Shown: positions 15,207 through 32,000, numbered from the stretch's first letter. The stretch: DNA of 32,000 nucleotides from Desulfobulbus propionicus DSM 2032 (GCF_000186885.1 NC_014972.1:3540001-3572000); one strand, 5' to 3'. The notes: a model not told the origin generated them from the sequence alone. Translations and numbers: made by a program.

Positions 15207-15930
15207 CCTGACGCATCTCAGTAAATCCTATAATGGCCACCGGGTGTTGGACGATATTTCCATTGAACTGCCGGATGTGCATGCCCTGGTCATCATTGGC
15301 CCCTCGGGAGGTGGCAAGACAACCCTGCTGCGCACGATTGCCGGCCTGGAGCGACCTGATTGCGGACAAATATGCATCAACGGCCAACCGCTGCTCTTTG
15401 ATGCGGCAAGCCTACTCCTCCATCGTCGCAGCATCGGCACGGTCTTTCAGGCCTTCAACCTCTTTCCGCACCTGAGTGCGCTTGACAATATCATGCTGCC
15501 GCTTGAGCAGGCGCAGGGATATACGCACGAGCAGGCCCTGGCAACGGCCCAGGCCATGCTGCACCGGTTTCAACTGACAGCCCATGCCGACAAGAAACCG
15601 GCCCAGTTATCCGGCGGCCAGCAACAGCGGGTGGCCATTGCCCGCGCCATCGCCATCAAACCACGGTTTCTGCTCTTCGACGAACCGACCTCGGCCCTTG
15701 ACCCGGAGATAACCTCAGAGGTGCTTGATATTATCAAGGAATTGCAAGAGGAGGGGCGCGATTTGCTGCTGATCACCCATCACATGGGATTTGCCCGCAC
15801 CGCAGCGGACCATTGTCTCTTTGTTGCAGAGGGAAAAATCAGGGAAAGCGGCAGTGTCGAGCGCCTCTTTGACCACCCGCAAAGCGAACAACTGCAGCAG
15901 TTTTTGGGAAGGGTCACCCGCTATAATTAA
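15196..15930 (+). CDS. Polar amino-acid ABC transporter ATP-binding protein (244 aa)
   Basis: Motifs: Walker A GPSGGGKTT, ABC signature LSGGQQQRVAIARA, Walker B LLFDEPTSALD, and the H-loop ITHHMGFA. The gene overlaps the permease end by 11 nt. Confidence 0.9.
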   Translation: MQLSLTHLSKSYNGHRVLDDISIELPDVHALVIIGPSGGGKTTLLRTIAGLERPDCGQICINGQPLLFDAASLLLHRRSIGTVFQAFNLFPHLSALDNIMLPLEQAQGYTHEQALATAQAMLHRFQLTAHADKKPAQLSGGQQQRVAIARAIAIKPRFLLFDEPTSALDPEITSEVLDIIKELQEEGRDLLLITHHMGFARTAADHCLFVAEGKIRESGSVERLFDHPQSEQLQQFLGRVTRYN

Positions 15931-16032
15931 TACCCGGTGGAAAACCACATCCTTTGACCAAGGCGGTGCCCGCAGAGCTGCAAGGTTGATCATTTTTGGG
16001 TGTGGCGTAACAAGCTACGAGCCCTACCAGGA

Positions 16033-16659
16033 TCAGTGCATAACACCATCGATCACTGCCCGGACCGCAAAGAACATCCCCGCCCCCAACGACAGCACCC
16101 GTCCCAACCGCTTCAGCCTCTGGTTTTCGACAAGATAGCCCCCAAACCCCAGGGGCAGCAGGTAGAGCGAGGTGCCCAGGAAAAAGGCAAGGAAGAACAG
16201 AGCCGCCGCCAACGGGCCAATGCCCTGGCCCCAGACCCAGGTGAGGGCGAGAAGAAACGGCGGGCAGAGGGAAAAGCCGGTCAGCGCGCCCAAGAGCAGC
16301 GGCGAGGCAACGCCACCCATGACCGAGCAGCCGAAGCGGCAGGAGAACCGCCGCAACAGTCCGAGCCCGTGGGCCATGAGCAACAGCGCCAGCAGCAGGC
16401 TCATCCAGGGGGCGAGCAAGCCACTGACCGCTTGCAGGGAATGACCGCTCAGCCCGGCAAGCATGCCAACCAGGGTGTAGGCACTCAGGCGGCCGCAGAG
16501 GAAGCGGCCCAGCAGCGGCCAGGCAAAGCGTCTTGCAACAGGCGATGGCGCAGTGGTGAGCATTACCGGCACCAGGGCCGGGACGCAGGCGACCAGACAG
16601 GCCGGACCGTTAGTCAGACCCAGCAGCAGCCCGGTTCCGGTTATTTCCAGGCCGGTCAT
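16033..16659 (-). CDS. Integral membrane protein (~208 aa, about 6 TM), Cys-containing; DsbD_2/TauE-like guess
   Basis: The protein is hydrophobic throughout. Membrane-embedded Cys motifs are present (GPACLVACVPALVP, GFSLCPPF). The start is taken at MTGLEITG (ATG 16657-16659), 4 nt after the activase stop. The family call is weak. Confidence 0.6.
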   Translation of the reverse strand: MTGLEITGTGLLLGLTNGPACLVACVPALVPVMLTTAPSPVARRFAWPLLGRFLCGRLSAYTLVGMLAGLSGHSLQAVSGLLAPWMSLLLALLLMAHGLGLLRRFSCRFGCSVMGGVASPLLLGALTGFSLCPPFLLALTWVWGQGIGPLAAALFFLAFFLGTSLYLLPLGFGGYLVENQRLKRLGRVLSLGAGMFFAVRAVIDGVMH

Positions 16660-16663
16660 CGGT

Positions 16664-17449
16664 TCAGGCCTGGGTCCCGGCGATGCGGGCCGCACCGATG
16701 GCACCGTTGAGCTGCGGGTGCAGCGGCAGATGGATATCAATCATCAATTCGTCTTCCAAGGCCTGAACAATACCGGGGTTGAGACCGCCACCACCGGTGA
16801 GCAGCACCCCCGGTTCAAAACGGGCCTTGCGTGCCATTGCACCGATGCGTTTGGCCAGGGCCTCGTGGATGCCGGCGACGATATCCCTGGCCGGCTTTTT
16901 ACGGGCCACCAGCGAGATCACCTCGGATTCGGCAAAAACCACGCAGGTGGAGTTGATGGTTGCCGGGGCAATGGATTGCAGGGACAAAGGGCCGAGATCG
17001 CTGACCTTCAGCTCCAGCACCCGGGCCAGGGATTCGAGAAAACGGCCGGTGCCGGCAGCGCACTTGTCGTTCATGACAAAGTTCTGGGTGTCGCCGTCCT
17101 CGCCTAGGACAATCACCTTACTGTCCTGGCCACCGATATCAATGACGGTGCGGATGTTGGCCTGCGGTGGTGCGGTCAGCAGTGCTCCGGCGGCATGGGC
17201 GCGAACCTCGGTGATGGTATCGTGGGCCACATCGATGATACGGCGGCTGTAACCGGTGGCCATGATCGAGCGGATGGTCTCGGTTGAACCACCGAGATCG
17301 TTCATGATCGTCTCCAGCAAGCGGCGCGAGGTGCCGGCGGCATCAATACCGGTGGGCCGGTGCTGGAAACCGGCCAGTTCCCCCTCTTCGGTGAGGACCG
17401 CCACCTTGACATAGGTGGATCCGGCGTCAATGCCGGCAAAATATTCCAT
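16664..17449 (-). CDS. HgdC/BcrAD_BadFG-type ATPase 'activase' for HGD-D-family enzymes (261 aa)
   Basis: Motifs: MEYFAGIDAGSTYVKVAVL (ASKHA phosphate-1), IDIGGQDSKVI, NDKCAAGTGRFLE (cluster-bridging Cys region), STCVVFAESEVISL, and LTGGGGLNPG. AAGGAG lies upstream of ATG 17447-17449. The 153-codon N-terminal extension in the ORF track is low-complexity and crosses an inverted repeat. Confidence 0.9.
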   Translation of the reverse strand: MEYFAGIDAGSTYVKVAVLTEEGELAGFQHRPTGIDAAGTSRRLLETIMNDLGGSTETIRSIMATGYSRRIIDVAHDTITEVRAHAAGALLTAPPQANIRTVIDIGGQDSKVIVLGEDGDTQNFVMNDKCAAGTGRFLESLARVLELKVSDLGPLSLQSIAPATINSTCVVFAESEVISLVARKKPARDIVAGIHEALAKRIGAMARKARFEPGVLLTGGGGLNPGIVQALEDELMIDIHLPLHPQLNGAIGAARIAGTQA

Positions 17450-17550
17450 GGCTGTTCTCCTTGGGTTGATGGGGTTTGAATGGGCTGGAGGTTGATTGTT
17501 GGGATCAGGCCTCGAAGCACCTCTTTCATATAAAGCGGGTTTGTTTTTTT

Positions 17551-17685
17551 CTCCCGCAGAGGCGCAGGGGCGCGGAGAAGATAAGGACGTCTGTTTGCTG
17601 CGCCTCAGTGCTCGACTGAACACTTGCAGTACAAACACTCCCTTTTCTCTGTGCCCCCCTCTGCGCCTCAGCGCCTCTGCGGGAG
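17551..17685. repeat. Perfect 15-bp inverted repeat enclosing ~105 nt, with internal GAGGCGC/GCGCCTC repeats
   Basis: CTCCCGCAGAGGCGC (17551-17565) pairs with GCGCCTCTGCGGGAG (17671-17685). CTGCGCCTCAG occurs at 17599-17609 and 17661-17671. The element sits in the only large gap (335 nt) of the 16-27.5 kb gene chain. Confidence 0.6.
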
Positions 17686-17784
17686 TCCCTTGCACAGTCA
17701 ACCACTGGGGTGTCTTCTCGAATAACGGGGGCTCTTGCTGCAATGCACCAAAGGAGGAGATCCTCTCTGCCTTCGGGATGGCAC

Positions 17785-19074
17785 CTATCGCCGTTTGCGC
17801 TGTACCAGCATCTCCACAAAGGCCTCGATGCGGGTGCGTAACTGTTCCACATCCTCGGGACTGTAGTCGGTTTCGATACGCACCATTGCCACCCCCGACT
17901 CCTTGCACACCGCCTCCACCCGTCCCACCTCGAAATCATAGACCACGCAGCCCTTGAGCACGTGGTAGACCACTCCATCGACCCGGTGGGAGGCAATCAT
18001 CCGCCGCAGGGTGACCAGCCGATCCTCGTTGGGGGCAAAACTCGGACAGATGCAGGGCATGAGCGTGCGTGCGGCCAGGGCGATAAGCTGCGCGCGCAGA
18101 TTGCGTTCCGGATGGCCCACCGGGTCGTAGAGCGCCCGTTCGCCGACGCAGGATTCGTCGGCCACCAGGATGGCCCCCAACTCCTCGATAAGGGTGGGCA
18201 GCTTGAGGTTGGGAAAGATGACCGGACTACCGGCAATGAAAATGCGCGGGGCACGGGCCGGGCACACCGCAATCTGCCGCTGCTCCAACTCGTCGTTGAG
18301 CGTGCGCATGGCCCTGGTCCAGGCTTCCACCTCCATGAAGGAGAAGGCATTGGCCGCCACCATCGCCTGCCGCCCCCAGAGCGGGCTGGTCTCCGCGCTA
18401 CGCAGGGCCTGCAAGCGCCGCATCTGGCTCTGGGCCGCTGCCTGCACCTGGATGGCCTGATCCAGGGTCTGAGCAGTGATGCGCACCCGCCTCCCCTGCT
18501 CCCGGCTCATATGCTGCTCCAATCGCTCCTTGAGGGCCATGACTTGCAGCAGCCAGGCCTGCTGGGAGATTTCCGAGTCCTTGAGATGGGGCACCTCCAG
18601 CATCCACACCTCGCGGAAGCGCGACAGCTCCTCGGCAAACTTGCGTTTGGCATCGCAGGTGGTGGGCACGATCACCACATCGCAGAGATCGTAGACGGCC
18701 AGACCTGGCTGGGCGGTCAAACCGAGTGAAGACTTGGCCAGGGGGCAGCCGTCACGGGGCACATGCTCCTCACCCGCCGCGCAGGAGGACGAGCAACCGC
18801 CGCAGAGCCGCAGGGGGATGGCACCAACGGCGTAGATCAGCTCCTCCGGCACCAAAATACAGTAAATGCCGATCACCGACCGGGTTGCACCGTCACGCAA
18901 GAGCAACGATCTGGGATCGTTGGCAACAAAGACCTGTTCCAGGGCCTCGATAAAGGGGGCAAGCGCGGCGGGGCCATCGGTCAGATCGCGGAGCATGGCC
19001 AACTGCCGGCCGGCCTCGCGGCTGATCTGCCGCAGCCAGCGGCCCGCTGCCTGGGGTTGGAGCGGTTTATTCAT
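17785..19074 (-). CDS. Single-subunit 2-hydroxyacyl-CoA dehydratase/benzoyl-CoA reductase (HGD-D) family protein, double-cubane-cluster-reductase-like (429 aa)
   Basis: Family-like blocks are present: VIGIYCILVPEELIYAVGAIPLRLCGG, VIVPTTCDAKRK, RIFIAGSPVIFPNLKLPTLIEELGAILVADESCVGER, and VDGVVYHVLKGCVVYDFE. A single polypeptide is paired with an activase downstream. The start is taken at MNKPLQ (ATG 19072-19074), overlapping the upstream stop by 8 nt (ATGAATAA). Confidence 0.8.
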   Translation of the reverse strand: MNKPLQPQAAGRWLRQISREAGRQLAMLRDLTDGPAALAPFIEALEQVFVANDPRSLLLRDGATRSVIGIYCILVPEELIYAVGAIPLRLCGGCSSSCAAGEEHVPRDGCPLAKSSLGLTAQPGLAVYDLCDVVIVPTTCDAKRKFAEELSRFREVWMLEVPHLKDSEISQQAWLLQVMALKERLEQHMSREQGRRVRITAQTLDQAIQVQAAAQSQMRRLQALRSAETSPLWGRQAMVAANAFSFMEVEAWTRAMRTLNDELEQRQIAVCPARAPRIFIAGSPVIFPNLKLPTLIEELGAILVADESCVGERALYDPVGHPERNLRAQLIALAARTLMPCICPSFAPNEDRLVTLRRMIASHRVDGVVYHVLKGCVVYDFEVGRVEAVCKESGVAMVRIETDYSPEDVEQLRTRIEAFVEMLVQRKRR

Positions 19075-20038
19075 GGCAAGACTCCGTAGCCGACGGGCGA
19101 TTGTGCTGCATCGCCAGGGCCGGGTGGCTGAAAAATCCCCGCGAGGAGGATCTGTAGATGGCAAGCCCCATAAAATCGGCACGCAGGGCGCGGTCTTCCG
19201 GGCAGTGCTCAATGCACTTCAGGCAGAGGATGCAATCGCCAAAGGTCACGTCGACCCGCCCCCGCGAGCTGAACACCTCGGTGATCTCCATGGGGCAGAC
19301 ATCGGCGCAGATGCGGCAGTGGGTGCAGGTGGCATCCTCCTTCTTCAATTTCAACAGACTCCAGCGCCGGTACCAGGACATCAGCAAGCCCAGCGGGCAA
19401 TACGGGCACCAGAAGCGGCGTTTGACCAAGGCGCCGATGATGGCCATCAGCGAAAAGAGCAGGCCCAGCGAGGACATCACCAGCCGGGTGGTGCTTTCAA
19501 AGTCGACCAGGATGCGATCCGGCGAAAAGGTGATCAGCGGCAGGATGTACTTGCCGGGGCACAACTGGCAAAAAGGGATGAACAGATCCAAGGCCACCGA
19601 GGGAAAGAACACCGGAAAGGCCACCCACAGCGGAATGAGCACGGCAATGGCCAGGAAGATCCACTTGGCCCAGCCAAGCCGCTGCCGCAATCGTTGATCA
19701 AAACGGGCAAAGCCCATGCCGAGCGCGCGCCGCAGCCGGTCCATCAGGTCCTGGAAAAACCCAAGCGGACAGATCCAGCCGCACCAGGCCCGGCCGATCA
19801 ACAGCACCAGCAGGCTGAACCAGAAGAAGCGTTCGAGAAAGAGCTGCATCTCCGCCCAGGTAAACGAGCCGAGGCTGGTTTGCAACGGCAGAAAAAAGCA
19901 GGTGCCGGCCCGGGTAGGCACAAAACAGCAGGAAAAGGTGGGCAGAAAACTGCCCAGATGCAACCCGGCACAGGCGCCAAAGAGCAAGATTGCAAAGGAA
20001 GTGGCCAAGATTAGCCAGCGGAGGTGAGCGATACGCAC
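19067..20038 (-). CDS. NapH/MauN/YccM-type membrane-bound polyferredoxin (323 aa)
   Basis: TM helices are present, with WCGWICPLG and FWCPYCPLG (CxxxCP/CxxCP) motifs. Two ferredoxin motifs follow: CTHCRICADVCP and CILCLKCIEHCP. The start is assigned to GTG 20036-20038, 2 nt after the upstream stop, with AAGGAGGAG just upstream. The longer ORF-track start would overlap the upstream gene by 150 nt. Confidence 0.8.
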   Translation of the reverse strand: MRIAHLRWLILATSFAILLFGACAGLHLGSFLPTFSCCFVPTRAGTCFFLPLQTSLGSFTWAEMQLFLERFFWFSLLVLLIGRAWCGWICPLGFFQDLMDRLRRALGMGFARFDQRLRQRLGWAKWIFLAIAVLIPLWVAFPVFFPSVALDLFIPFCQLCPGKYILPLITFSPDRILVDFESTTRLVMSSLGLLFSLMAIIGALVKRRFWCPYCPLGLLMSWYRRWSLLKLKKEDATCTHCRICADVCPMEITEVFSSRGRVDVTFGDCILCLKCIEHCPEDRALRADFMGLAIYRSSSRGFFSHPALAMQHNRPSATESCHE

Positions 20039-20040
20039 GG

Positions 20041-21048
20041 CTACTCCTCCTTGACGCGGCACTGCGCAAAGCGCACCAGGCCCAGCCGCTGCTGCCGCCG
20101 CTTCCCCAGCATGGCCCCGCCTACCAGCAGCAGGGTACCGCCGAGACCGAGCCCGGCCCAGACCATGTAACCAGCCACATGGCTGGTCCACTCCGGCCGG
20201 TTACGGAAGATGATCATCGGCAGGGTGGCGACATGGAGGGCCTGATGTTCCGGGTCTTCGACCCTGACCACATAGAGCAGCTTATCGTAGTGGAGCTGCT
20301 TAGAGCGGTCGTCAAAGGGAATGACTGTGAAGCGGCCGGAGGCATCGGTACGATAGCTCCGGCGCCAGCCGCTGCCCTCGGCAATCGCCTCGACCATGGC
20401 CCCGGCCAGGGGACGCCCCTGATAGCGTACCTCCATGCCATACTCCTCGTGCGGGCGCTGGAAACCGCCCCCCATGCGGTACATGGCCGGTGAACGGGCT
20501 GAACCGATCTCCAGGGCGATGGCGGGATCCTCGAAGAAGAAGGCCGGGGCCGATCCGGGACGTCCGTCATGCTTGTAATGGCCGACCATCAGCTTGGGAT
20601 AGAGGTGGAGCCGTTGCCGACCACCATTCCCATCAAGCTGAAAATGACCACCCACCAGATAGCGGCCATTGAGGTTGAGGTCCTCAGGCAGGACGATTTC
20701 CCGCATGTCCGGGCTTACCGTTGTTGCCTTGCGGACTCCGTCCGGATCGCAGATGACCACCGTACCCGCCGGCAGCAGGGCCTCGGCCTCCTGCCCCATG
20801 GCGATGAAGGGATCGGCCAATACGCCCCGCACCAGTTCCAGGTGTTTGGGTTTCTCCTGGACACTCTGTCGCTGTTCGCGCTCCTCTCGGATCTGTCGCC
20901 AGTTGAGGTTGTCCATCGCAAAACGGTAGACGTGGAGGCCTTCCTGTTGCAGTTGCCAATAGAGGAGTTTGGGCGCATCTGCGCCAGAGCCAATTTGGGG
21001 AACAAACCCTACTATTATCAAGAGGAAAAAACGTAGCGGCCCCTTCAT
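20041..21048 (-). CDS. Periplasmic protein with signal peptide and C-terminal TM anchor (335 aa); function unknown
   Basis: From ATG 21046-21048 the protein starts with the signal peptide MKGPLRFFLLIIVGFVPQIGSGA. A beta-rich body includes a carboxypeptidase-regulatory/transthyretin-like stretch (GRPLAGAMVEAIAEGSGWRRSYRTDASGRFTV). The C-terminal TM segment is VWAGLGLGGTLLLVGGAML, followed by a basic tail. The ATG overlaps the CobN-like stop (ATGA). Confidence 0.65.
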   Translation of the reverse strand: MKGPLRFFLLIIVGFVPQIGSGADAPKLLYWQLQQEGLHVYRFAMDNLNWRQIREEREQRQSVQEKPKHLELVRGVLADPFIAMGQEAEALLPAGTVVICDPDGVRKATTVSPDMREIVLPEDLNLNGRYLVGGHFQLDGNGGRQRLHLYPKLMVGHYKHDGRPGSAPAFFFEDPAIALEIGSARSPAMYRMGGGFQRPHEEYGMEVRYQGRPLAGAMVEAIAEGSGWRRSYRTDASGRFTVIPFDDRSKQLHYDKLLYVVRVEDPEHQALHVATLPMIIFRNRPEWTSHVAGYMVWAGLGLGGTLLLVGGAMLGKRRQQRLGLVRFAQCRVKEE

Positions 21049-24000
21049 TGTCCCAGCCTCTCCAGACGCCATACCGGTCGCCACTTCTCGACATCAGCAG
21101 CGGTCATGACCTCAACCTTGGAGCCCTGGAACTCCTCGCGTACCTCGCCGATACTTTCCTCCATGTCACCCTCGATTAACAGCGCCGCCTCCTGCACTGC
21201 GGCCAGCCGTTCGGCATCGGCCTGCCACAGGCCCCGGCTCTGGGCTTCAAGCAGACGGCGGGTGATCTCCTCCAGGCCGTAGGGGTTTTCGCGGCGCAGC
21301 CATTCTAGATTGGTCTGATCCTGAATGTAGGTGGTCACCACCCGGTCAAAGACCCAACCGGCCACGGTTTCGGTGGTGGCACTCCATTTGAACAGGGTGT
21401 TGACCCGGCCGGCCACCTCGCCCGCGCCCTGGTAGCCCTCCTGTTGGCGCTGATCGATCCAGTGCGGGTTGAGCAGTTTGGCCATGGTCGTGGCCTCCAG
21501 ATCTTCCTGAAAGTCCCGCACCGAATGATCGGCCTCGCTGTTGTTGTCGGCAAAGTAGATCCGGGCCCGTTTGCCGGTCAAGGCCTTGGCCGCCACCGAC
21601 ATGCCGCCGAGACAACCGGTGTAGCAACTACAGTCGGTGGCATCGTACTCCGGCGAGGCTTGGCGCATATAGCTCACCTCCACATCTTTGAGGCGGGCGG
21701 CAAAGAGGCGATGCGCCGCCACGCCCTGAACACGTTCAAACCCACTGATCCGGTCCGAACCGTAGGCAAAGCCACTCCAGTTGATATAGGTCTCGGCCAA
21801 ATCGGCCTCATCGTTCCAGGCTGAAGCATCCAAAGCCAGACCAACCCCGGTGCCGCTGGCCCCAGGAGCCGAAGAAAAGACCCGGAAGCTGGCCATTCGC
21901 CGCAGTTCTTCGCCGCTGTGCTGCTCACCCAGTTCCCGGCGTAACTCGTCGAGTTGTTCCAGGGTGTGTTTGCGGATGAAATTCTGTTCAATCGGTTCAG
22001 GCAGATCCCCGGCCATGACGGCGGCCTCGTCGAGCAGGTCAGCAAAGTGCGGCACCATGTCGCGGAGGATGGAACTGGTCTGGATGACCACATCCACCCG
22101 CGGCCGGAGCACACCGGGGCCGTCGGTGCGATCCAGTTGCAGTACGTGCAAGGGGATGGGTTCAACTCCGCAGACCCGGCCGTTTGCTTGCCAGAGAGGC
22201 CGCATACCCATCAGGGCCAGGATCTGGCAGAAGACCTCGCCGTCGGACTTGAAGGCATCGATGCTCCACAGGCTGATGCCCACGCTCTCGGGGAAACGCC
22301 CCTCGTCCTCGAGGTATTTGCGCAAAAGATTATCCGAGAGCGCCTGTCCCACCTCCCAGGCGGCCCGCGTGGGGAGGGCGGCAACATCGCTGGTGAAAAA
22401 ATTGCGCCCCGTGGGAAGGGCCTCGGTCTTGCCCAGGGCCAGGGAGCCACAGAGGCCCGGCTCGATGTACTCGCCGTCCAGGGCGCGAAGCAGTTGACCA
22501 ATCTCACGGGTGCAAAGGCCGATGCGGCCCCCCACATCCTGGCACCAATCCAGGAGTCGGCGAAACGGTTGCTGGCCGGGCTCCGCTTTGCAGCCGTCCT
22601 TTGTCGTTGTCAGCAACCATTCGAGCACGGCCACGGCATCGTCAAACGCATTGCCCGAGGACGGCTGATGATGGGCAGCGATCTCCGCCAACAGGGGCAG
22701 GCCGTCCACTGGTTTGCCAAGGATGGTGGCCAACAGAGTGGCAATGCCGTGGCTGTCCGGGGCTGTTCCCAACAGATGTGGGCCGGTGGCAGAAAGGACG
22801 CGTCGGCTCCGGCCAATCCGGCGGGAGAGCAGCTCCATTGCCCGATCAAAATCCTCCTCCCCTTCCAGACCGCCCATTTGCTGCATCAGCGGCTGCATTC
22901 GTGCCCGCAGCACCTGCTGCCGCTGGTTTTCCCCGTGCAGTTTTGCCTTCTGGTACTGGTCAAGCAGGTCTTCCAACTCCAGGGTCATGGCATCCAGCGG
23001 CGCCGGCCGACGAACCGGGCAGAGATGATCGACCATCACCGCCCTGGCCCGCCGCTTGGCCATCAGCCCTTCGCCCGGCACATCCATGATGTAGAGGTAG
23101 ATGTTGGGCAGATCGCCCAGGCTTATCTCCGGAAAACAGGCTGCCGAGAGTCCGACCTGCTTGCCCGGCAAAAATTCGAGCGCCCCATGGGCACCGAAAT
23201 GGAGCACCGCATCCGAGGTGGCACGGATATAGGCGTAGGTGGCCAACCAGTGTGGTGGTGGCGAGAGGTGCGGATCATGGAGGATGCGGCAGACCTCGCC
23301 GTTGCACTTGGCTCCGTAGCAGCCGCGCTTGGGCTGGACAATGATCTGGAGATGACCAAAGCGCAGGCCGGTCACCAACAAAGTGGCCTGGCCGTCTTGC
23401 CGGTACACCATGCCCTCGCCGGGAAAGCGGCCCCAGTCGTTTTCAACCCGCTGCCTGGCCGCCTCGGGCATATCTGTTAGTAATTGCAGGTATTCCTCCG
23501 CATCCACCCGGTGCAGCACCCCACCCTTGGCCACGATCTCGTCGGTGGTGGTCCAACGGAACTCGGAGATGGCCTTGCGTGCGAGCAGCAGATCGAGCAG
23601 TGCTTTGCCGTCCTCCGGGGCATTGCCGGTATCGTAGCCCGCCTCGCGCAGGGCGGTGATCAGGGCCGCCAGACTGGCAAAGGTATCCAGACCGGCGGCC
23701 AGCCCCAGGGTGGCTTCCACGCCCTTGCAGGGATTGTTGTGCAGCACAATGGTCAGCCGCTTTTCATCATTGTCGAGCAGGCGTAGGCGGATCCAGCGAT
23801 GCAGCCGCAGGCAGAGCCGCTCGATCTGTTCCGGCAGAGGGATATATCGTCGCAGCAACAGCCCGGTGACGGGATCGGTTTCCCCTCTGGTGGCAGCCAC
23901 GGCGGTGGGCTCGATCACTCCGGCCATCTCCGGCTGGGTGAGGCTGAAAACCATGGATGCGGCGCCCGCCCCCGCGCCGGTGACATCCTGGCGCCACTGC

Positions 24001-24821: not shown

Positions 24822-26386
24822 GTCAAGCCTCCTGGTTGAGCAATGGCCCACCGGTCAAGAGGCACCTGGTGATTTGGCGAGTAGTGCCGCAACAGTGTTG
24901 GGTAATCGATTCTGTCCTGGAAGCGCTTCACCCTTGTTTTTCTGGTATCAAGGATGACGCCACCGTTTTCTCCCTGCTGAACAAGGGTTTCCTGCCAGCG
25001 TTGGTGGCCTTCCGGGGGTAACCATATCCCCGCCCCCCCGGCTGAGATCACCACCACCGCCACCTGTTCGACGGTACGGGCTCCACCAAGCAATTGGACC
25101 GCATCGGTGAATGAACGGCTGAAAATAACGACCACATCAGCACCCTCTTTGGCACAGGCCAACACCATTTCCGGGTGATAGAGCGCTCTTTCCGGCAAAA
25201 GATGAATCCTTGCAGGCCCGCAATCGCAACAGGGGAAAGGAATGGGCATTGCAACAGAGTCGCTGAAAACACCTAAAGAGAAAGGCCTCGTGTGACCATC
25301 AAACCAATAAACAGCCTTCACCGCCTCCATTGTTCGCACAAGCAGAATTTTCTGCCCCTGGGATACGCACCAATCATGTAAGTTGGCCATGTCGGCATCA
25401 TCGTAATCGTTGATCGGAAGGAGGTGGAGCGTATCGGCACCCCCCTCCGAGTTCGGGTTCGTGTTTCTGATTGGCGGGATAGCACCTGCCTGTTCAGAAC
25501 AGTGACATCGAACCTCCAACTTCCCAGGCGGAGGCAAATGGAGAAATGTTGTCAAATCATCGATCCCAGTTCTGTTGAGCGTACAGGGATGAACGTGGTC
25601 AGTACTCCTTGAAGTCAGACGCTTGAGGCGATTGCCGGAGAGCAGTTTGTGGTCCGCATTGAGGGGCAAATTAATCCGCAGCAGCTTCGAGGTTCGGGAA
25701 CATTTCTGGAGTTGCACGATTCCTTGTGGACTGACGATGGCCGAAGGGGCGTGCCGGCAATCCATGAGCAGATCCTTGCCGGTGCGGTTGCAGGCAAGGA
25801 CGAACAGCCCATTTTCCAAGGCCCTAGCTCGCCATATTTCCAAGGGATCAAGTCCCAATGGAGGCCAGTTAGCGAGCACGAGTAACAGATTGGCGCCGCG
25901 AAGAGCCGTGACTCTTGCCATGAGACTATGATACGAGTCGGAGCAGATCAGTACCCCCATCCGTCCCCAAGGGGTATCAAATGTATTGTTTTCATAGGGA
26001 TTACCAGGACAGGCCCAACGGAATTCAGCATTCATCTTCCGATAGCGACAAACAATTTCTCCTTCCGCATCAAGGACAAATGCGCTGTTGTAGAGAATGC
26101 CATTTGCCGGGTCTCGCTCTGCCATGCCAATACAAGCGTACATGCCGTAATGACGGCAGATCTTACCGACCTCCGACAGGGTTGGGCCATCAACGGCTTC
26201 GACGTAGGGTGCGACATCCCGCATGTCGGCAAAAGAATATCCGGAGATAACCATTTCAGGGGCCACAACCATCTGTACCCCTTTTTTCCCGGCCACATGG
26301 CAGAGGTCCAGCAACTGCTGCCGGTTGGCCTCGGGCTGTTTGTATTCAACGGATAGATGCATCAAACCGAACTTCAGAAAAGCCAT
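24818..26386 (-). CDS. Carbon-nitrogen hydrolase (nitrilase-superfamily) protein with a second, apparently degenerate CN-hydrolase-like domain (522 aa)
   Basis: The N-terminal domain has an intact Glu-Lys-Cys triad context: VVAPEMVISGY, CRYRKMN and GVLICSDSYH. RARALENGLFVLACNR is also present. The C-terminal ~220 aa repeat the fold pattern (PERALYHPEMVLACAKEGADVVVIFS; GGARTVEQVAVVVISA), but the nucleophile position is unclear by eye. The start is taken at ATG 26384-26386 (GGAG 6 nt upstream). Confidence 0.8.
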   Translation of the reverse strand: MAFLKFGLMHLSVEYKQPEANRQQLLDLCHVAGKKGVQMVVAPEMVISGYSFADMRDVAPYVEAVDGPTLSEVGKICRHYGMYACIGMAERDPANGILYNSAFVLDAEGEIVCRYRKMNAEFRWACPGNPYENNTFDTPWGRMGVLICSDSYHSLMARVTALRGANLLLVLANWPPLGLDPLEIWRARALENGLFVLACNRTGKDLLMDCRHAPSAIVSPQGIVQLQKCSRTSKLLRINLPLNADHKLLSGNRLKRLTSRSTDHVHPCTLNRTGIDDLTTFLHLPPPGKLEVRCHCSEQAGAIPPIRNTNPNSEGGADTLHLLPINDYDDADMANLHDWCVSQGQKILLVRTMEAVKAVYWFDGHTRPFSLGVFSDSVAMPIPFPCCDCGPARIHLLPERALYHPEMVLACAKEGADVVVIFSRSFTDAVQLLGGARTVEQVAVVVISAGGAGIWLPPEGHQRWQETLVQQGENGGVILDTRKTRVKRFQDRIDYPTLLRHYSPNHQVPLDRWAIAQPGGLT

Positions 26387-26438
26387 GATCTGCTCCAATT
26401 ACGTCTGAACCATAGTGCAATGACCTTGATACACCTTT

Positions 26439-27494
26439 CTATTGATCCGCCATGCTGGCAGAAGCCAACGTTTGATACAAGGTGCAGGCCAGCGTGCGAA
26501 CGACTGGGGGATTGTACAACAGACGGCTGGGGCAATCATTGGGGCAACAGCCCGACAATGGGCACTCACCACAGTCCTGGCCGAAGGTTGATAGCTCCGC
26601 GGAAAGGATAACTGAGGAATAGTTCGCTTCCGGATCGATCACAAAGCGTTCGTCGCCCAGGGTCTGGTTGCAAGGGAACCAGCGGCCATCAGGATGAACC
26701 GCCAAGCTACCCCCTTGCGCTGCTTGACAGAAATTGCGGGGAGCCATTCGCCGATCACGGTGAAGCATCCGCCGTACCAGATCCCATTCGCGCAGCCGTA
26801 GTGGTATCTTCCGCTGCGTATTGATGGCTGCCAATGCCTTGGTCAGGGAACAAACGCCACCTTTCAGTGCTTCCGCTGTCGCAGGAATAGGTTTATATTC
26901 CACATTCTCGGCCGAGCCCTTCTTCACCAAGAGGTCAAGGCCGATCCCCCTGGCTTGACGGAAGGCAGAGAGTAACCAGGCCAGGCGGTCCAACTGCCCC
27001 ACGTTCTCACCTGAGACCACGGCAGTGACTCGGAAGGGGATTTGCTCCGACTCTAGCAGCATCAGCCCGCGGAGGGTCTCGGCAGCTTGGCCGCGCAAGG
27101 ATTGTTGTGTCTTGGGTGAACCATCAAGGCTGATGCCCACCTGGAGACCAAAGGTGCGACACAGTTCGATCACCTCGGGCGTCAAACAGGTACCATTACT
27201 TTGCAGTCCCATGGTGTACGGTCGCGACAGGCTCCTTGCCCGTTCACAGGCCTCTTCGATCAGATCCGGCACCAGGCAGGGTTCGCCCCCGGTCAGCTGA
27301 ATGTGCAACGGCCCGGAGCCGGAAGCCGCACGGGCAAAGGCACGCTCAAGAGTGGCACTGCCCATATCCTGCCGTCCCGGAGTATCACCATGATAGCAGT
27401 AGCGGCAACGCAGGTTACAGCGGGTGGTCAGGGCAAGAATCAGATAGTTGATTGATTGGGGGACAGCCGAGTGCGGCAAGGGAGGGGGCTTCAA
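26439..27494 (-). CDS. Radical SAM enzyme with C-terminal SPASM/twitch-type Cys-rich domain (351 aa)
   Basis: Motifs: LALTTRCNLRCRYCYHG (CxxxCxxC) and IQLTGGEPCL (GGE motif). The C-terminal Cys set is CQAAQGGSLAVHPDGRWFPC ... CGECPLSGCCPNDCP. There is no in-frame ATG or GTG before the cluster motif. The start is assigned to TTG 27492-27494, overlapping the cobO stop (TTGA). An alternative TTG lies at 27477-27479. Confidence 0.85.
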   Translation of the reverse strand: MKPPPLPHSAVPQSINYLILALTTRCNLRCRYCYHGDTPGRQDMGSATLERAFARAASGSGPLHIQLTGGEPCLVPDLIEEACERARSLSRPYTMGLQSNGTCLTPEVIELCRTFGLQVGISLDGSPKTQQSLRGQAAETLRGLMLLESEQIPFRVTAVVSGENVGQLDRLAWLLSAFRQARGIGLDLLVKKGSAENVEYKPIPATAEALKGGVCSLTKALAAINTQRKIPLRLREWDLVRRMLHRDRRMAPRNFCQAAQGGSLAVHPDGRWFPCNQTLGDERFVIDPEANYSSVILSAELSTFGQDCGECPLSGCCPNDCPSRLLYNPPVVRTLACTLYQTLASASMADQ

Positions 27495-28012
27495 AACTCG
27501 ATCCCCTTCTGGGCCTTGATGCCGCTCTTCAGGGGATGCTTGACCACCCGCATCTCGGTGACGAGATCAGCCGCCTCAATGAGGGCTTGCGGGGCGTAAC
27601 GACCGGTGATCAACACATGCTGCTCGGCACGGCGCGATGCAAGAAACTCCAGGCAGGGTGCAATCTCCAACATACGGTAATGGAGCAGGTAGGTGAACTC
27701 ATCAAGCACCACCAGATGATACTGGCCGCTGTCGATGGCCTGGCAGGCCAGGGCCCAGCCCTCACGGGCTAGGCGGATGTCCTCCTCCAGGCTCTCCGAT
27801 TTCCAGGTAAACCCACGTCCCATGACGTGCAAATCGATGCAATCATCAAAGCGTTTGACCGCCTCCAACTCGCCGTAGCGCCAACTGCCCTTGATGAACT
27901 GGATGAAACAGACCCGCAGCCCATGGCCCGCTGTCCGCAGGGCCATGCCTAGCGCAGCGGTGGTTTTGCCTTTGCCGTCGCCGGTGTGGATGATCAGTAA
28001 GCCTTTGGTCAT
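27491..28012 (-). CDS. cobO: Cob(I)yrinic acid a,c-diamide / cob(I)alamin adenosyltransferase, CobA/CobO/BtuR type (173 aa)
   Basis: The sequence MTKGLLIIHTGDGKGKTTAALGMALRTAGHGLRVCFIQFIKG...YGE...LVVLDEF...ITGR.AP..LIE.ADLVTEM..VKHP is a full-length match to the CobA/CobO P-loop family. The start is at ATG 28010-28012 with AAGGAA upstream. Confidence 0.9.
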   Translation of the reverse strand: MTKGLLIIHTGDGKGKTTAALGMALRTAGHGLRVCFIQFIKGSWRYGELEAVKRFDDCIDLHVMGRGFTWKSESLEEDIRLAREGWALACQAIDSGQYHLVVLDEFTYLLHYRMLEIAPCLEFLASRRAEQHVLITGRYAPQALIEAADLVTEMRVVKHPLKSGIKAQKGIEF

Positions 28013-28068
28013 TGGTGATTCCTTATTCCTGGAACGAATCGGTCTTTGCAAAGCGGCCATGCCGCCCT

Positions 28069-28108
28069 CTCACCCGGCAATCGATAAGCGTCCCGGTTGC
28101 CGGGTGAG
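28069..28108 (-). promoter_or_regulatory. 12-bp intergenic stem-loop between TBDR-1 and cobO
   Basis: CTCACCCGGCAA (28069-28080) pairs with TTGCCGGGTGAG (28097-28108) around a 16-nt loop. The element starts 10 nt after the receptor stop. No U-tract follows on the minus strand, so it is more likely an mRNA processing, stability or attenuation element than a full terminator. Confidence 0.5.
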
Positions 28109-28117
28109 TTGCTGGAT

Positions 28118-30121
28118 TCAAAAATGGAATTTCACACCGCCGTACACGGAGAATCCCTCCATGCAGTAGCCGGATTCCGTGTATTCCTTATCCAACAGGT
28201 TATCAATGCGGGCAAAGAGATCCATATTCTCCAAGGCCTTATACGTACCGGACAGATTCACAGTGGTGACCCCGTCTTCCTCCCAGCGGATACTGTTCCA
28301 GCTCGGATCATTGAGCGGGACAATCTGCGCATCCCGCCAATTGATATCCAAGGCCATGGTCAGCTTGTCCATGGAATAGAGGGTGACGATGAAGTCAATC
28401 TTGTTTCTCGGCAGGTAGGTATTGCGGGTCCAATCGGCATTCTCATCAGCCTTGGAACGGGAGTCGATGTAGGTGTAGGCCAGATCAAATCGAACCATCT
28501 TCCAGGGCTGCACGCGAATCGAGGTCTCAATACCTGAGCTTTCACCCTCCTTGGCGTTGTCGTAACGCATGGCCGTATTATCGAAAATGATCATGTCGTC
28601 GAACTGGGTTTGAAAATAGGTAACCCCTACATTGACCTTGCCCCCTGCCAGCTCCTGGTTGACACCGATCTCGTAACTGGTGCTTTCTTCCGGTTGCAGG
28701 TCCGGGTTACCGATGGTGATCAGGTTGCCGTTATAGAGGTAGCCACCATAAATCTCGTACAATCCCGGAGTGCGATAGCCGGTGCCCACGTGGGCATGGA
28801 GTTTGGTTCCGGTGTTTTTAAACAGATACGCCGCCGAGGTTTCCCAGACAGCCTCACCATCAAATTCATCGTGGTCGTTGTATCGGCCTCCCAGGTTGAT
28901 AAACAGGCTGCGATCAAGCAGGGCAAACTGGGCCTGGCTAAAGACGTCTTTATTCCCCCACGACTCATCAAAACTGACCGGGGTATAATCGCCGGCATAT
29001 TTGTTCTTGGGTTCCTGACCGTCGTAGACGGATTTCTCGTAATCAGCCCCGAGATTGAGTGTCAGCCACTGGTTGAGATGCAGGTTGTGCTGCATTTCCA
29101 CATAACTGGTTTCGCCATCGTAGTTGGATTGGTCTCCCGGAGTGGTGGACCAAAAATAGTGGCGTTCGGTGGCGCCTTGCGAGCCCTTGAGCGAGAAATC
29201 CCACAGCGGCGAGATCGTCTGGTTCCAGTTGAGTCCCACCTGATAGAGTTGCCCTTCGCGATGCTGGTCCGCATAGGCCTGGTTCTTGATCAGACCGCCA
29301 TCGGCGCCCAGACTCGGAGAACTGCCCATGGCCAGATCGGTATCCGAAAAAATGCCGCTGAACTCGACGGTAGTCCTCTCTGTGGGTTTTACGCCTGCCC
29401 CAAAGGTCGCGCCGGTGTTATCGTACCAGTAGCCGTTGGGGCCACCGTTGTTGGCGCCATCGGTGGTGATGTACATGGGGTTGAAATCGACGTAATAGTT
29501 GTCCTTGCCGTAGGCGGCGCGGGCGTTGGTAACATAGGTGCCGTTGGGGCCGAACTCGTTGCGCCATTCCGCCGAAGGCCCGGATTGCCATCTTTTGGGA
29601 ATGATGTTGACCACCCCGCCCATGGCCTGGGAACCGTAGAGGGTACTGTTGGTCCCCTTCAGCACCTCCACCCGATCGAGATTGGAACCGCTGTACATAT
29701 CTTCGATGAAGTATTGCAGGGTGCTCTGGGTGTCGGCGGCATCGCGCAACGGCATGCCGTTGTACTGATATTGAGTGTACTGCGAGCCCGTGCCACGGAT
29801 GCTGATATTGGACCACTGCCCCATACCCCCGAGCCTGCGAAGATAAACGCCGGGCTCGTTGTCGAGCAATTCGGGGAGGAAATACTGTTGTTGCTCCTCC
29901 CGATCCTCGCTGTCGATAATATTGATGCTTTTGGTGGTTTCTTTGAGCAGGGTTTCCGTCCGCGAGGCGGTTACCACGATATCCTCGGCCTTCTGGATGG
30001 TTTGCTGTTCTTCGGAGGTTACGGTTTCCTGGTCATTGGCCAGCGCCGGAACGGCCATCCACGGCATCAGAGCCAGGGCAAAGAGTAACTGGCTCGGTTG
30101 CAGTCTTATTCTTGATTGCAT
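28118..30121 (-). CDS. TonB-dependent outer-membrane receptor (667 aa), BtuB-sized
   Basis: A signal peptide ends in PALA. A TonB-box-like EDIVVTASR is present. Plug motifs include ISIRGTGSQYTQYQYNGMPL and RVEVLKGTNSTLYGSQAMGGVVNII. The C-terminal barrel ends GGVKFHF. AAGGAG lies upstream of ATG 30119-30121. Confidence 0.9.
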   Translation of the reverse strand: MQSRIRLQPSQLLFALALMPWMAVPALANDQETVTSEEQQTIQKAEDIVVTASRTETLLKETTKSINIIDSEDREEQQQYFLPELLDNEPGVYLRRLGGMGQWSNISIRGTGSQYTQYQYNGMPLRDAADTQSTLQYFIEDMYSGSNLDRVEVLKGTNSTLYGSQAMGGVVNIIPKRWQSGPSAEWRNEFGPNGTYVTNARAAYGKDNYYVDFNPMYITTDGANNGGPNGYWYDNTGATFGAGVKPTERTTVEFSGIFSDTDLAMGSSPSLGADGGLIKNQAYADQHREGQLYQVGLNWNQTISPLWDFSLKGSQGATERHYFWSTTPGDQSNYDGETSYVEMQHNLHLNQWLTLNLGADYEKSVYDGQEPKNKYAGDYTPVSFDESWGNKDVFSQAQFALLDRSLFINLGGRYNDHDEFDGEAVWETSAAYLFKNTGTKLHAHVGTGYRTPGLYEIYGGYLYNGNLITIGNPDLQPEESTSYEIGVNQELAGGKVNVGVTYFQTQFDDMIIFDNTAMRYDNAKEGESSGIETSIRVQPWKMVRFDLAYTYIDSRSKADENADWTRNTYLPRNKIDFIVTLYSMDKLTMALDINWRDAQIVPLNDPSWNSIRWEEDGVTTVNLSGTYKALENMDLFARIDNLLDKEYTESGYCMEGFSVYGGVKFHF

Positions 30122-30156
30122 GGGTGTCTCCTTTTTGCTGTTTCTTTAGTTCAATC

Positions 30157-32000
30157 TCAAAACTTATAGGAATAACTGAGAAAAAAGGACTGACCAGGTT
30201 TGGGGTAACCCTTTTTCTCGTAGTAGTCCTCGTCAAAGAGGTTATCGATGGTCAGCGCCACCCGGTGGTGCTCCAGAAAATTGTAGCCCACCACAAAATC
30301 GATCACGGTAAAGGAAGGGTATTCGATCTCCGGGTAACCGGCGGTAACCCAGTCGGTGTCACGCATCGGTCCAACGGTACGAAAATGGAGACGGCTGTCG
30401 ATGGTGCCATCATCGTATTCCACCCCATAGTTATAGGTGTAGTCGGCGACATTGTAGATATCGCGATTGGTGCCGGCAGTGACCTCCTCTTCCGCCGAAA
30501 AGATGGTGGTATTGTTGACGTAGAACTTGAGGCTGCGGTTCCAGTGCAGGGGTACGCCGAGATCAAAACTCAAGGTTGATTCCAGCCCCTGAATATCGGC
30601 ACCCAGTGCGTTGATATAGGTTTTGACGTTACCGCTCTGGGTGGTGGTGATGCGATCATCGACCGTGGTGTCGAAATAGGTGACATCCAATGCCACACCC
30701 CAGGCAGGGAGTTCATAGCCGACACCCGCGTCCCAGGTGGTCGAGGTTTCGGGATCAAGTCCGCTGTTGCCTTGGGTGATCATGGTGACGCCGCCGACCA
30801 TGGTTTCGGAATAACCGGCCAGTTCAAAAGCGCTGGGCGGGACAAAGGCTTGGCCGATGGTGGAATGCAGTCGAATACCGGAATCAAAGAGGTAGTTGGC
30901 GCCGACCCGGGGACTGAAGGTGGAAAAATCCTCGGTCGTGGGATCAAAGCCGCTCATGTAGGGGGTGGACAGGGTTTCAACCTCAAAGGTGTCATAACGT
31001 CCGCCGCCGGTGAGGGTCAGGCGTTTATCATTGAACTTCCACACCGATTCGAGATAACCGGCCAAGTTGGTGCGGCCTTCATCGGGGGAAGAGGGCGCCT
31101 TGCGGCTGCCGCTGGTGGTGTAACTGCGCGAGAGTTTTTCGATGTACTGGTAATCGAATCCAGCAATAAACTTGTGATCGCCCCAGGTGTAGGTATCCTG
31201 CAACTGCCACCCATCCCAGGTGGTGTCGGAATCATAGCTCCGATAGGTGGGAACGGTTTTGCTACCGGAATAGTTCGAGTAATTTTCAGCCTCTTCCTCG
31301 GTATGGTAGACGGTGGCCCCGACCTCATTATTGGCGCCCAGTCCGCCACCGACCCGCAGATCGACACCGTTATTGTCGATATCCTTGCTGCCGCTGCGCA
31401 CATCGCCGTAGGCCACGTCACCGGGGGTTTCAATGTCACGGCCCTGGTACATATTGGCGGAAAAATCCGCTCGCCAGTCATCGGCAAAATTGCCGCCAAT
31501 GCGCACTGAACCGTTGCGGGTGCTGTAGGCGGTGCTGGCGCGTTCATCACCATTGTCCCCGGTTTTCAGATTATCGGCCTGCTCGTACCGGCCAGCAGCC
31601 ACATTAAAATCCAGCTTGTCGGCAATAATGGCCCCACCGGTATTCAGTTTCTCGAAATTGGTATCAAAGCTGCCAAATCCGGCCTCTACCTCACCGGCAA
31701 TGCCCTTAGTATTTTTCTTGGTGATCACATTGACCACGCCTCCCATAGCCTCGGCACCGTACAACGAGGAGGCGGGTCCTTTAAGGACCTCAATGCGTTC
31801 GACGTTATCGGTGAGCACGGTGGCCAGGTTGGTGGCACCAATGGGGCGGCCGTCGAGAAGAATCAAGCTGTGTTTGGTGATACCGGAAAACTCGGGCCGG
31901 AAGCCGCGGATGCCGATACCTGCCAAGGCTCCCGGATACTCGATCACACTGACCGAACTCGATTTTTTCAGCTGTTCGGTGATCATGGTGGCTGCGGTCA
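30157..32000 (-). CDS. TonB-dependent outer-membrane receptor, 5'-partial (N-terminus beyond the window edge)
   Basis: Plug motifs are present (IGIRGFRPE, LILLDGRPIG, RIEVLKGPASSLYGAEAMGGVVNVITK). The barrel ends FFLSYSYKF. The reading frame stays open from 31986 to position 32000, so the signal peptide and TonB box lie outside the window. Confidence 0.9.
   Translation of the reverse strand, partial: TAATMITEQLKKSSSVSVIEYPGALAGIGIRGFRPEFSGITKHSLILLDGRPIGATNLATVLTDNVERIEVLKGPASSLYGAEAMGGVVNVITKKNTKGIAGEVEAGFGSFDTNFEKLNTGGAIIADKLDFNVAAGRYEQADNLKTGDNGDERASTAYSTRNGSVRIGGNFADDWRADFSANMYQGRDIETPGDVAYGDVRSGSKDIDNNGVDLRVGGGLGANNEVGATVYHTEEEAENYSNYSGSKTVPTYRSYDSDTTWDGWQLQDTYTWGDHKFIAGFDYQYIEKLSRSYTTSGSRKAPSSPDEGRTNLAGYLESVWKFNDKRLTLTGGGRYDTFEVETLSTPYMSGFDPTTEDFSTFSPRVGANYLFDSGIRLHSTIGQAFVPPSAFELAGYSETMVGGVTMITQGNSGLDPETSTTWDAGVGYELPAWGVALDVTYFDTTVDDRITTTQSGNVKTYINALGADIQGLESTLSFDLGVPLHWNRSLKFYVNNTTIFSAEEEVTAGTNRDIYNVADYTYNYGVEYDDGTIDSRLHFRTVGPMRDTDWVTAGYPEIEYPSFTVIDFVVGYNFLEHHRVALTIDNLFDEDYYEKKGYPKPGQSFFLSYSYKF

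Follow-up and report, generated by a model that had tools for sequence, protein, structure and literature searches.

Positions 16033-32000 of a 32,000-nucleotide (nt) stretch of Desulfobulbus propionicus DSM 2032 DNA (NC_014972.1:3540001-3572000; "the window" below means this whole stretch) carry a cluster of eleven genes that we read as part of a cobalamin (B12)-repressed system for cobalt or corrinoid supply and metallation with an ATP-driven reduction step. We put the probability of this reading, whose chemistry we infer, at roughly 45%. The region would form the downstream two-thirds of a "cobamide supply" operon repressed by cobalamin and, as judged from gene order across genomes, is composed of three separable modules: two TonB-dependent receptors with the adenosyltransferase CobO; a radical S-adenosylmethionine (SAM) enzyme, a nitrilase-superfamily amidase and a CobN-like class I chelatase large subunit; and a cassette made up of a periplasmic protein that we call Peri, a NapH-like polyferredoxin, a double-cubane-type reductase, its activase and a DsbD_2 membrane protein. 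The narrower proposal that this cassette serves as a dedicated ATP-driven reductive step in cobalt/cobamide acquisition, working with a cysteine-rich and possibly iron-sulfur clade of CobN proteins, is tentative and we hold it with considerable doubt.

A D. propionicus DSM 2032 protein matches the CobN-like protein at 100% identity, and the eleven minus-strand open reading frames (ORFs) that had been called in an initial annotation of the sequence are all present with their named domains in Pfam and NCBIfam. Five junctions were re-read from the sequence and agree with that annotation: the cobO stop overlaps the start of the radical SAM gene (TTGA at 27491-27494), the amidase and CobN genes share ATGA at 24818-24821, CobN and Peri share ATGA at 21045-21048, Peri is followed by AAGGAGGAG and the GTG start of the NapH-like gene at 20038, and the NapH-like and reductase genes overlap by 8 nt (19067-19074). 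A physical complex had been argued from these overlaps, an argument that does not carry, as overlapping stops and starts are commonplace in operons and on their own are no proof of a complex. Scanning 15800-32000 for promoters and terminators returned no intergenic signal exceeding the shuffled background.

The proposed tie to corrinoids was borne out by the synteny of orthologous clusters in an uncultured Desulfobulbus (L001; handles are used to tell loci apart) and D. rhabdoformis (L025), together with cobalamin riboswitches (RF00174) upstream of the first receptor in relatives. Among the genome-scan loci that were scanned with Rfam, the five closest (L001, L005, L006, L018 and L025) each have RF00174 immediately upstream of the first receptor; the usual position of the riboswitch in relatives is between CbiZ and that receptor. 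The gene directly after RF00174 in L001, L006, L018 and L025 is an orthologue of receptor 2 of the window, at 83-88% identity. Three RF00174 aptamers stand in tandem, about 300 nt apart (7221-8010), ahead of a receptor-CobN-DUF4198-cassette operon in a Desulfatiglandales genome (L012). Using an nhmmer profile made from 13 Rfam-confirmed aptamers, with key matches re-checked with Rfam, we found that 43 of 80 CobN loci have a riboswitch-like match scoring 40 bits or more, frequently just upstream of CobN itself. Judged from its relatives, the cluster in D. propionicus is probably under riboswitch control as well. Receptor 2 (30157-32000, with Plug and beta-barrel domains) is cut by the right edge of the window, its reading frame still open at 31998, so the operon head and any riboswitch lie outside; the two RF00174 aptamers inside the window precede a mutase operon, not the receptor-CobN cluster. 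The initial annotation had named a lack of synteny, and of any link to corrinoid genes or riboswitches, as an outcome that would speak against it. The search was run and found syntenic orthologues, RF00174 upstream of them and a cassette that recurs beside corrinoid genes.

To place the cluster among its relatives, we used a scan anchored on CobN, with one genome per species, which gave 79 loci; the tabulation covers 80 distinct loci. The recurrent neighborhood comprises ChlD, ChlI, an ATP-binding cassette (ABC) ATPase, an ABC-2 permease, CbiZ, one or more receptors, CobO, the radical SAM enzyme, the amidase and CobN, with ChlI/ChlD present in 43 of the 80 loci, a TonB receptor in 37, CbiZ in 23, the radical SAM gene in 21, the amidase in 10 and CobO in nine. 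The order radical SAM-amidase-CobN-(DUF4198)-Peri-NapH-reductase-activase-DsbD_2 is the same in L001 and L025, and the gene set, redox genes included, is partly present in L012. Four other close relatives, L170, L005 (D. elongatus), L006 and L018, have receptor-CobO-radical SAM-amidase-CobN and no cassette, with CobN identities to the window of 84% for L170 and 69%, 66% and 65% for the others. The cluster is therefore modular, and the earlier description of one eleven-gene unit has to be given up. As judged from these gene orders, the D. propionicus cassette is an insertion or a deletion relative to its nearest relatives. Likewise, seven of the products had been placed outside the known corrinoid pathways, which fails for CobN, given that ChlI/ChlD, ABC-2 and CbiZ genes lie upstream in relatives and a cobaltochelatase has already been proposed. 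That proposal, for CobN with ChlI/ChlD in the B12 regulons of anaerobes, is credited in PMC9227772 and PMC8620254 to Rodionov 2003.

The contexts of the cassette in other lineages were collected from reductase homologues and from a metagenome scan anchored on the reductase. NapH-like genes are widely found in a trio with the reductase and the activase. Among 15 long loci with a reductase of 48% identity or more, 13 have NapH and, ahead of the reductase, Peri, and B12 markers are present in 8 of the 15, to which L168 and L169 add two; at 38-47% identity, B12 markers are found in 0 of 13 long loci, some of which hold receptors and DUF4198 genes. RF00174 heads a cassette-bearing operon in six loci (L086, L096, L103, L156, L168 and L169). 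It stands directly before Peri or a DUF4198 gene in L086, L168 and L169, and is separated from the cassette by a receptor in L156, where the receptor stop overlaps the Peri start, by a MetE-like gene in L096 and by a receptor and CobO in L103. The gene orders around this cassette of four to five genes vary. The spirochaete locus L086 reads riboswitch, cassette, receptor, ABC pair, riboswitch, CobN, and L085 reads cassette, periplasmic binding protein, ABC pair, CobN. L083 reads ChlI, TonB-ExbBD, CbiZ, cassette, DsbD_2, riboswitch, receptor, CobO, radical SAM. Desulfosarcina ovata (L168) has a receptor inside the cassette (riboswitch, Peri, NapH, receptor, reductase, activase, CobN), and L169 has a receptor, a riboswitch and a DUF4198 gene ahead of it, the riboswitch standing directly before the DUF4198 gene. 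Cassette loci in which B12 markers are missing include L095, L104, L109 and L154. L154 encodes a nitroreductase-family protein, from a Pfam family that we take to include BluB, and has a DsbD_2 gene after the cassette. L104, a locus with no riboswitch, carries an 850-residue fusion of a molybdopterin oxidoreductase and a tetrapyrrole methylase (3809-6358) between a TonB receptor and the cassette.

The CobN-like protein (21045-24821) belongs to a clade that we call "4-Cys CobN". PF02514 (CobN-Mg_chel) covers residues 112-1215 (1005 bits), the superfamily motif HFGxHG is present as HFGAHG at 541-546, and the glutamate of HGxLEFLPGK is kept. All NCBIfam CobN/BchH cut-offs are missed, the best match being NF004646 (904 vs 1468 bits); TIGR02025 for ChlH/BchH gives 648 bits (cut-off 829), with the DLDH motif absent, and TIGR02257 gives 636 bits (cut-off 822). 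The protein is about equidistant from the solved CobN (456 bits) and ChlH (421 bits), with HmuS (9d26) further away (312 bits). We defined the clade from an alignment of 106 CobN homologues taken from the fetched loci, in which Cys365, Cys501, Cys506 and Cys511 are invariant within the clade. Three of the four lie in an insertion, RGCYGAKCNGEVC, that is absent from solved CobN and ChlH. A four-cysteine site would suggest an iron-sulfur cluster or a thiolate metal site. At the domain V motif, canonically D-x-D-[DH]-[YF], the window protein reads D-C-S-C-Y and the clade mostly C-x-C or C-C-C; paralogues without the four cysteines have DSDD or DLDH. By motif reading rather than residue-level alignment, this Cys-x-Cys position would correspond to the second active-site histidine of HmuS and ChlH. 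These clade-specific cysteines fit redox or thiolate metal chemistry. Identity to the window protein is 70% in Desulfobacterota, 45% in Chlorobi and 30-35% in methanogens and clostridia, so that, by its sequence signature, the clade is common to sulfate reducers, green sulfur bacteria, clostridia and methanogens.

The window shows no gene for an AAA+ or VWA partner; L001 and L170 have ChlI/ChlD-type genes upstream. Three loci of Desulfobacterota, far from methanogens (L002, L013 and L057), combine the same CobN clade not with the cassette but with a CfbC-like NifH fusion and a NifD-like partner. The NifH-NifD fusion and a NifD/BchB-like protein lie directly upstream of a riboswitch-preceded 4-Cys CobN in L002 (5944-9517), and the best match of the fusion is the CfbC model of the F430 pathway (321 bits vs a cut-off of 402). 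By its sequence, the fusion is a second, unrelated type of ATP-driven low-potential reductase alongside the same CobN clade. We also observed that a 4-Cys CobN usually co-occurs with a second CobN paralogue, about 30% identical and lacking the four cysteines, together with one ChlI/ChlD pair, in Chlorobi (L023, L028, L036-L038, L044, L046, L047, L051, L054 and L060) and in clostridia (L075, L079, L080 and L082). Two paralogues with a single ChlI/ChlD pair suggest two large subunits working on one motor.

The cassette itself encodes the parts of an electron path. The NapH/CcoG-type membrane polyferredoxin (19067-20038) has Fer4_5 and dicluster ferredoxin domains, with CX3CP/CX2CP and two CX2CX2CX3CP motifs at residues 86, 157, 211, 238 and 269; it scores 79 bits against TIGR02163 (cut-off 213), and nap genes are absent from the window. 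The double-cubane-cluster-type reductase of the HGD-D family (17785-19074; PF06050, 302 bits) marginally misses the NCBIfam double_cubane model NF040772 (327.3 bits, cut-off 350). It aligns over residues 65-423 with the solved double-cubane cluster protein (DCCP) at E 8e-56 (7yyl) and 1e-55 (6eno), cysteine positions included, and eight cysteines are invariant across 38 homologues. The ATP-dependent activase, an electron-transferring ASKHA ATPase (16664-17449; PF01869 BcrAD_BadFG, 184 bits), passes TIGR00241 (228 bits, cut-off 125), and its cluster cysteines Cys130 and Cys169 lie in KCAAGTG and STCVVFAE motifs, the counterparts in the DCCP reductase (DCCP-R) being C115 and C152 (PMC9351452). 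The DsbD_2 protein (16033-16659; PF13386, 63 bits) carries GPACxxxC and LCPP motifs whose cysteines lie in membrane helices and are conserved in L001, L025 and L083. The pair thus resembles DCCP/DCCP-R of Carboxydothermus hydrogenoformans (6eno, 7yyl) in having an HGD-D subunit with conserved cysteines and an adjacent ASKHA ATPase with two cluster cysteines. It differs in standing beside a NapH-like polyferredoxin, a DUF4198-fold protein and DsbD_2, and in belonging to a cassette that occurs in B12-riboswitch operons.

Peri (20041-21048) has a signal peptide, a beta-rich body resembling a DUF4198 beta-sandwich, and a C-terminal helix, the predicted membrane anchor, with a conserved basic tail. 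Foldseek searches with its AlphaFold model (pLDDT 79) gave as top PDB matches the Zn/Cu/Co-bound entries of Zcp (9mhl and 9mhm; E 3e-10, probability 1.0, TM-score 0.58-0.61 normalised on the target) and also found a Ni-bound DUF4198 protein (9gcb, E 3e-6), both ranking above generic Ig-like folds. The Pfam match to PF10670 (DUF4198) is weak (18.8 bits vs a cut-off of 34); His135, His148, His253 and His272 are conserved, and distant homologues carry His-rich inserts. The first DUF4198 protein to be characterised, Zcp captures metal in the periplasm, in concert with TonB-dependent metal uptake, and the authors of that work foresee other metals for other members of the family (PMC12663993). Peri shares with it the predicted fold, the periplasmic location and an adjoining TonB receptor gene, overlapping in L156; it differs in falling under the Pfam cut-off, in its C-terminal membrane anchor with a conserved cytoplasmic tail, and in its translational coupling to a polyferredoxin. 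Under a B12 riboswitch, the structural model would make cobalt the obvious candidate metal. Given the DUF4198 fold of Peri, and since the broader relatives of the cassette stand beside receptors and DUF4198 genes, cobalt handling appears at least as likely as tetrapyrrole editing.

Upstream of the chelatase, receptor 1 (28118-30121; Plug and TonB_dep_Rec_b-barrel domains) has as its best NCBIfam match the TonB-B12 model TIGR01779, at 179 bits against a cut-off of 600, and it is therefore no BtuB equivalog; NF007926 gives 149 bits (cut-off 836), and heme and siderophore receptor models score about as high as the BtuB models. CobO (27491-28060) is an ATP:cob(I)alamin adenosyltransferase of the CobO/BtuR type, with 224 bits to PF02572 (CobA_CobO_BtuR) and 214 bits to TIGR00708 cobA (cut-off 168). 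The locus is like BtuB/CbiZ-CbiB/CobA(CobO) salvage in having CobO in the window and riboswitch-controlled receptors and CbiZ upstream in relatives. It is unlike it in that the receptor is no BtuB equivalog, BtuFCD is absent from the window, and the known route does not include the chelatase, the radical SAM enzyme, the amidase or the reductase.

The remaining two enzymes of the chelatase module were each assigned in part. The radical SAM enzyme (26439-27494) has a CNLRCRYC motif and a Cys-rich, SPASM-like C-terminus; its radical SAM domain was confirmed (PF04055, 57 bits), and the SPASM domain that the initial annotation had added gave no Pfam match at E <= 0.01. Its best NCBIfam matches are SPASM-type maturases, all far under their cut-offs (PapB 90 bits, NirJ 52, AhbD 49). 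We considered a role in maturing a ribosomally synthesised and post-translationally modified peptide, to which these best matches would point, and rejected it because the flanking gaps of 0-40 nt leave no room for a precursor ORF and the gene travels with CobN. The amidase (24818-26398) had been described as a tandem CN-hydrolase; PF00795 (CN_hydrolase) matches the N-terminal half, over residues 21-237, with a catalytic triad (Glu48, Lys121, Cys152) invariant in 11 orthologues, and the C-terminal half has no significant Pfam match and aligns with the N-terminal half at only 2.5% probability in hhalign.

Taken as a pathway, these parts would work as follows. The two receptors would import corrinoids and/or chelated cobalt, and CobO would adenosylate the reduced corrinoid. 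The radical SAM enzyme, amidase and 4-Cys CobN would form an ATP-dependent class I chelatase system inserting cobalt into a corrin or tetrapyrrole intermediate, with ChlI/ChlD, whose genes in relatives lie just upstream alongside those for CbiZ and an ABC-2 transporter, as the most likely partners of CobN. Peri would capture metal, or other cargo, in the periplasm and sit on the NapH-like polyferredoxin; the double-cubane reductase and activase would spend ATP to deliver electrons of very low potential, and DsbD_2 would provide a thiol-lined membrane path. We infer the cargo, the chelatase substrate and the target of the reductase alike; the electrons would reduce a cobalt center, from Co(III)/Co(II) towards Co(II)/Co(I), which would loosen cobalt for transfer to the chelatase and yield Co(I) for CobO. 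Cobalt is favored as the reduced species because the most general partners of the cassette are receptors and metal-binding proteins, because CobO needs Co(I), and because corrinoid activases are an established case of Co(II)/Co(I) reduction coupled to ATP (cited in PMC9351452).

Several observations weigh against a B12-repressed supply and metallation system. The very close relative L170 has no RF00174 between CbiZ and its receptor in Rfam scans, and with the operon head beyond 32000 no riboswitch for the cluster is visible in the window. Seven of 17 long cassette loci have no B12 marker within 10 kb, and the wider NapH-DCCP-activase trio is not tied to B12. The cassette appears dispensable for the chelatase module, since L170, L005, L006 and L018 lack it. 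The cargo is ambiguous, because DUF4198 proteins bind bare metal ions and corrinoids are the substrates of CobO and CbiZ. A strict anaerobe that makes B12 by early insertion offers a CobN-type chelatase no obvious substrate. Finally, Co(II)/Co(I) chemistry does not strictly call for a potential as low as that of the double-cubane cluster (PMC9351452).

The same genes could also run in the opposite direction, which we consider unlikely, although it survives better than the other alternatives. Imported corrinoids or other metallotetrapyrroles would be stripped, reduced by the cassette and demetallated by the 4-Cys CobN, and the cobalt kept; CbiZ would take off the tail, the amidase would remove side-chain amides and an ABC-2 exporter would expel the ring. 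Cobalt is exceptionally inert in corrins, which speaks against extraction; in its favor, cobalt transporters are reportedly typical targets of B12 riboswitches. CbiZ, the amidase, the ABC-2 exporter-type transporter and TonB receptors do co-occur with this CobN clade, and a protein of the metal-ion-binding DUF4198 fold is present, although it is periplasmic and the CobN-like protein cytoplasmic. Moreover, ChlI/ChlD motors are known from insertion reactions, and destroying corrinoids under B12 scarcity would be counter-intuitive with CobO and CbiZ in the same locus. The precedent is HmuS of the hmuYRSTUV system of Bacteroidota, which takes iron from heme and shows that a CobN homologue can run backwards after metal reduction (PMC12583661). 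Both systems place a CobN homologue beside a TonB-dependent receptor in an anaerobe, with reducing power ahead of metal handling (PMC12583661). Characteristic of HmuS are membrane segments at its termini, some 120 inserted residues rich in Met and a setting among hmuYRSTUV genes (PMC12583661). We examined membership of the window protein in this family and rejected it: it starts MKILFVHGQ with no hydrophobic N-terminus, lacks terminal membrane segments and the 120-residue Met-rich insertion (1258 vs 1469 residues), lacks hmu neighbors, including HmuY/T/U/V partners, and is closer to CobN and ChlH than to 9d26 by the bit scores given above. Control in relatives is by a B12 riboswitch rather than within a heme-uptake operon.

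That the cassette is merely a neighbor seems to us quite improbable. Here the products of the genes from Peri to DsbD_2 would act independently on some unrelated substrate, the genes having been inserted behind a B12 operon of receptors, CobO, radical SAM enzyme, amidase and CobN. The closest relatives lack the cassette, and in L170 the methylmalonyl-CoA mutase operon follows directly after CobN; B12 markers are also missing from the four cassette loci named above. In addition, a spacer of 335 nt (17449-17785) interrupts the cassette between reductase and activase. It holds a long minus-strand hairpin with a 27-nt inverted repeat (17551-17685; folding energy -76.8 kcal/mol, z-score -5.8), is missing from D. 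rhabdoformis and most other cassettes, and could represent either an insertion or a signal for processing or stability. However, the ATGA at 21045-21048 couples CobN to Peri in D. propionicus, at least five different gene orders and lineages show the cassette joined, independently, to CobN, receptors, CbiZ and CobO, and RF00174 heads its operon in six loci. Even without B12 markers, L104 has its tetrapyrrole methylase fusion and L154 its nitroreductase-family protein.

Still more doubtful is a role in ring chemistry, where the reductase, replaced elsewhere by a CfbCD-like nitrogenase homologue, would reduce the macrocycle and the radical SAM enzyme and amidase would tailor side chains. With the chelatase, this would make an oxygen-independent alternative branch of cobamide or modified tetrapyrrole biosynthesis that follows the logic of coenzyme F430. 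The F430 pathway (chelatase CfbA, amidotransferase CfbB and reductase CfbCD) likewise unites a chelatase with amide chemistry and with an ATP-driven reductase of low potential, and beside the same CobN clade either the DCCP cassette or the CfbC-like NifH fusion with its NifD-like protein is found, the latter standing in for the cassette in L002, L013 and L057. The radical SAM enzyme is weakly similar to NirJ, AhbC and AhbD, the methylase fusion of L104 adjoins the cassette, and the CobN clade is present in methanogens too. Yet the enzyme family differs at every step in the window, and the system, B12-regulated as judged from relatives, has uptake and periplasmic components. Methyltransferases and other ring-building genes are absent from the locus, the best matches of the radical SAM enzyme are peptide maturases under their cut-offs, the cassette is dispensable in close relatives, and the receptors, the periplasmic metal-binding protein and DsbD_2 would have no role in a cytoplasmic branch.

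An ordinary late-insertion CobN of the aerobic CobNST pathway, with the remaining genes as unrelated annotation noise, can be given practically no weight: the full-length CobN-Mg_chel domain and HFGxHG motif, the ChlI/ChlD-type partners in orthologous loci and the adjoining CobO, which marks consecutive steps of late insertion, do resemble CobNST and ChlH-ChlI-ChlD, but the protein falls under all curated CobN equivalog cut-offs, has four invariant cysteines and Cys-x-Cys in place of Asp-Asp or Asp-His, and comes from a clade of strict anaerobes, among which we count D. propionicus, linked to TonB receptors, CbiZ, ABC-2 transporters, radical SAM enzyme and amidase instead of cobG/cobW-type genes, with CobS, CobT, CobW and CobG not seen in the loci inspected.

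Beyond the cluster, the left part of the window carries the mutase operon mentioned above. Tandem cobalamin riboswitches (10424-10603 and 10078-10263, minus strand) precede genes for the subunits of a B12-dependent methylmalonyl-CoA mutase and MeaB (4404-9937, minus strand), an arrangement that is kept in L005, L008 and L170. Each riboswitch is followed by a hairpin and a T-run (region 9937-10603). In the first riboswitch, TTGATCCGG of the aptamer is complementary to the 5' arm of the terminator, which resembles the classic OFF design; B12 repression of a B12-dependent mutase would be paradoxical. The cluster and the mutase operon are adjacent in L170; in the window they are separated by an amino-acid ABC transporter on the plus strand (13578-15930) and a stretch of low GC content (10830-13000; 0.35-0.44 vs about 0.6 elsewhere) with a ParA-like ATPase (12119-12967) and small ORFs without assignment. 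Phage-like recombination genes occupy 52-2284 on the minus strand, namely a single-stranded DNA-binding protein (52-456), an unassigned 335-residue ORF and a weak Rad52/22-like protein (1592-2284). In the uncultured Desulfobulbus L018, two matches to group II intron D1-D4 (RF02005, 15955-16191 and 20947-21183, about 147 bits each) lie downstream of CobN.

The physiological role and substrate of DCCP are described as unknown (PMC9351452), and the function of CobN homologues in strict anaerobes and archaea with the early-insertion B12 route has been called unclear or speculative (PMC12583661, PMC8620254, PMC9227772). The association of CobN with ChlI/ChlD, CbiZ and receptors is already known. 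In the open-access literature searched, we found no paper linking DCCP or HGD-D proteins to cobalamin riboswitches, CobN or TonB receptors, and what appears to be new is the B12-regulated double-cubane cassette, the set of cysteines that marks the CobN clade and the modular build. The locus and its relatives place these two kinds of protein under cobalamin riboswitches beside importers and a metal-capture protein, where reductive chemistry might loosen cobalt for insertion into, or extraction from, corrinoids. If true, double-cubane proteins would acquire a first physiological function and the retention of "aerobic-type" chelatases by strict anaerobes would be explained; it would also show how anaerobes of sulfidic habitats supply cobalt for their cobamides, and add ATP-driven reduction to the means of metal and cofactor acquisition.

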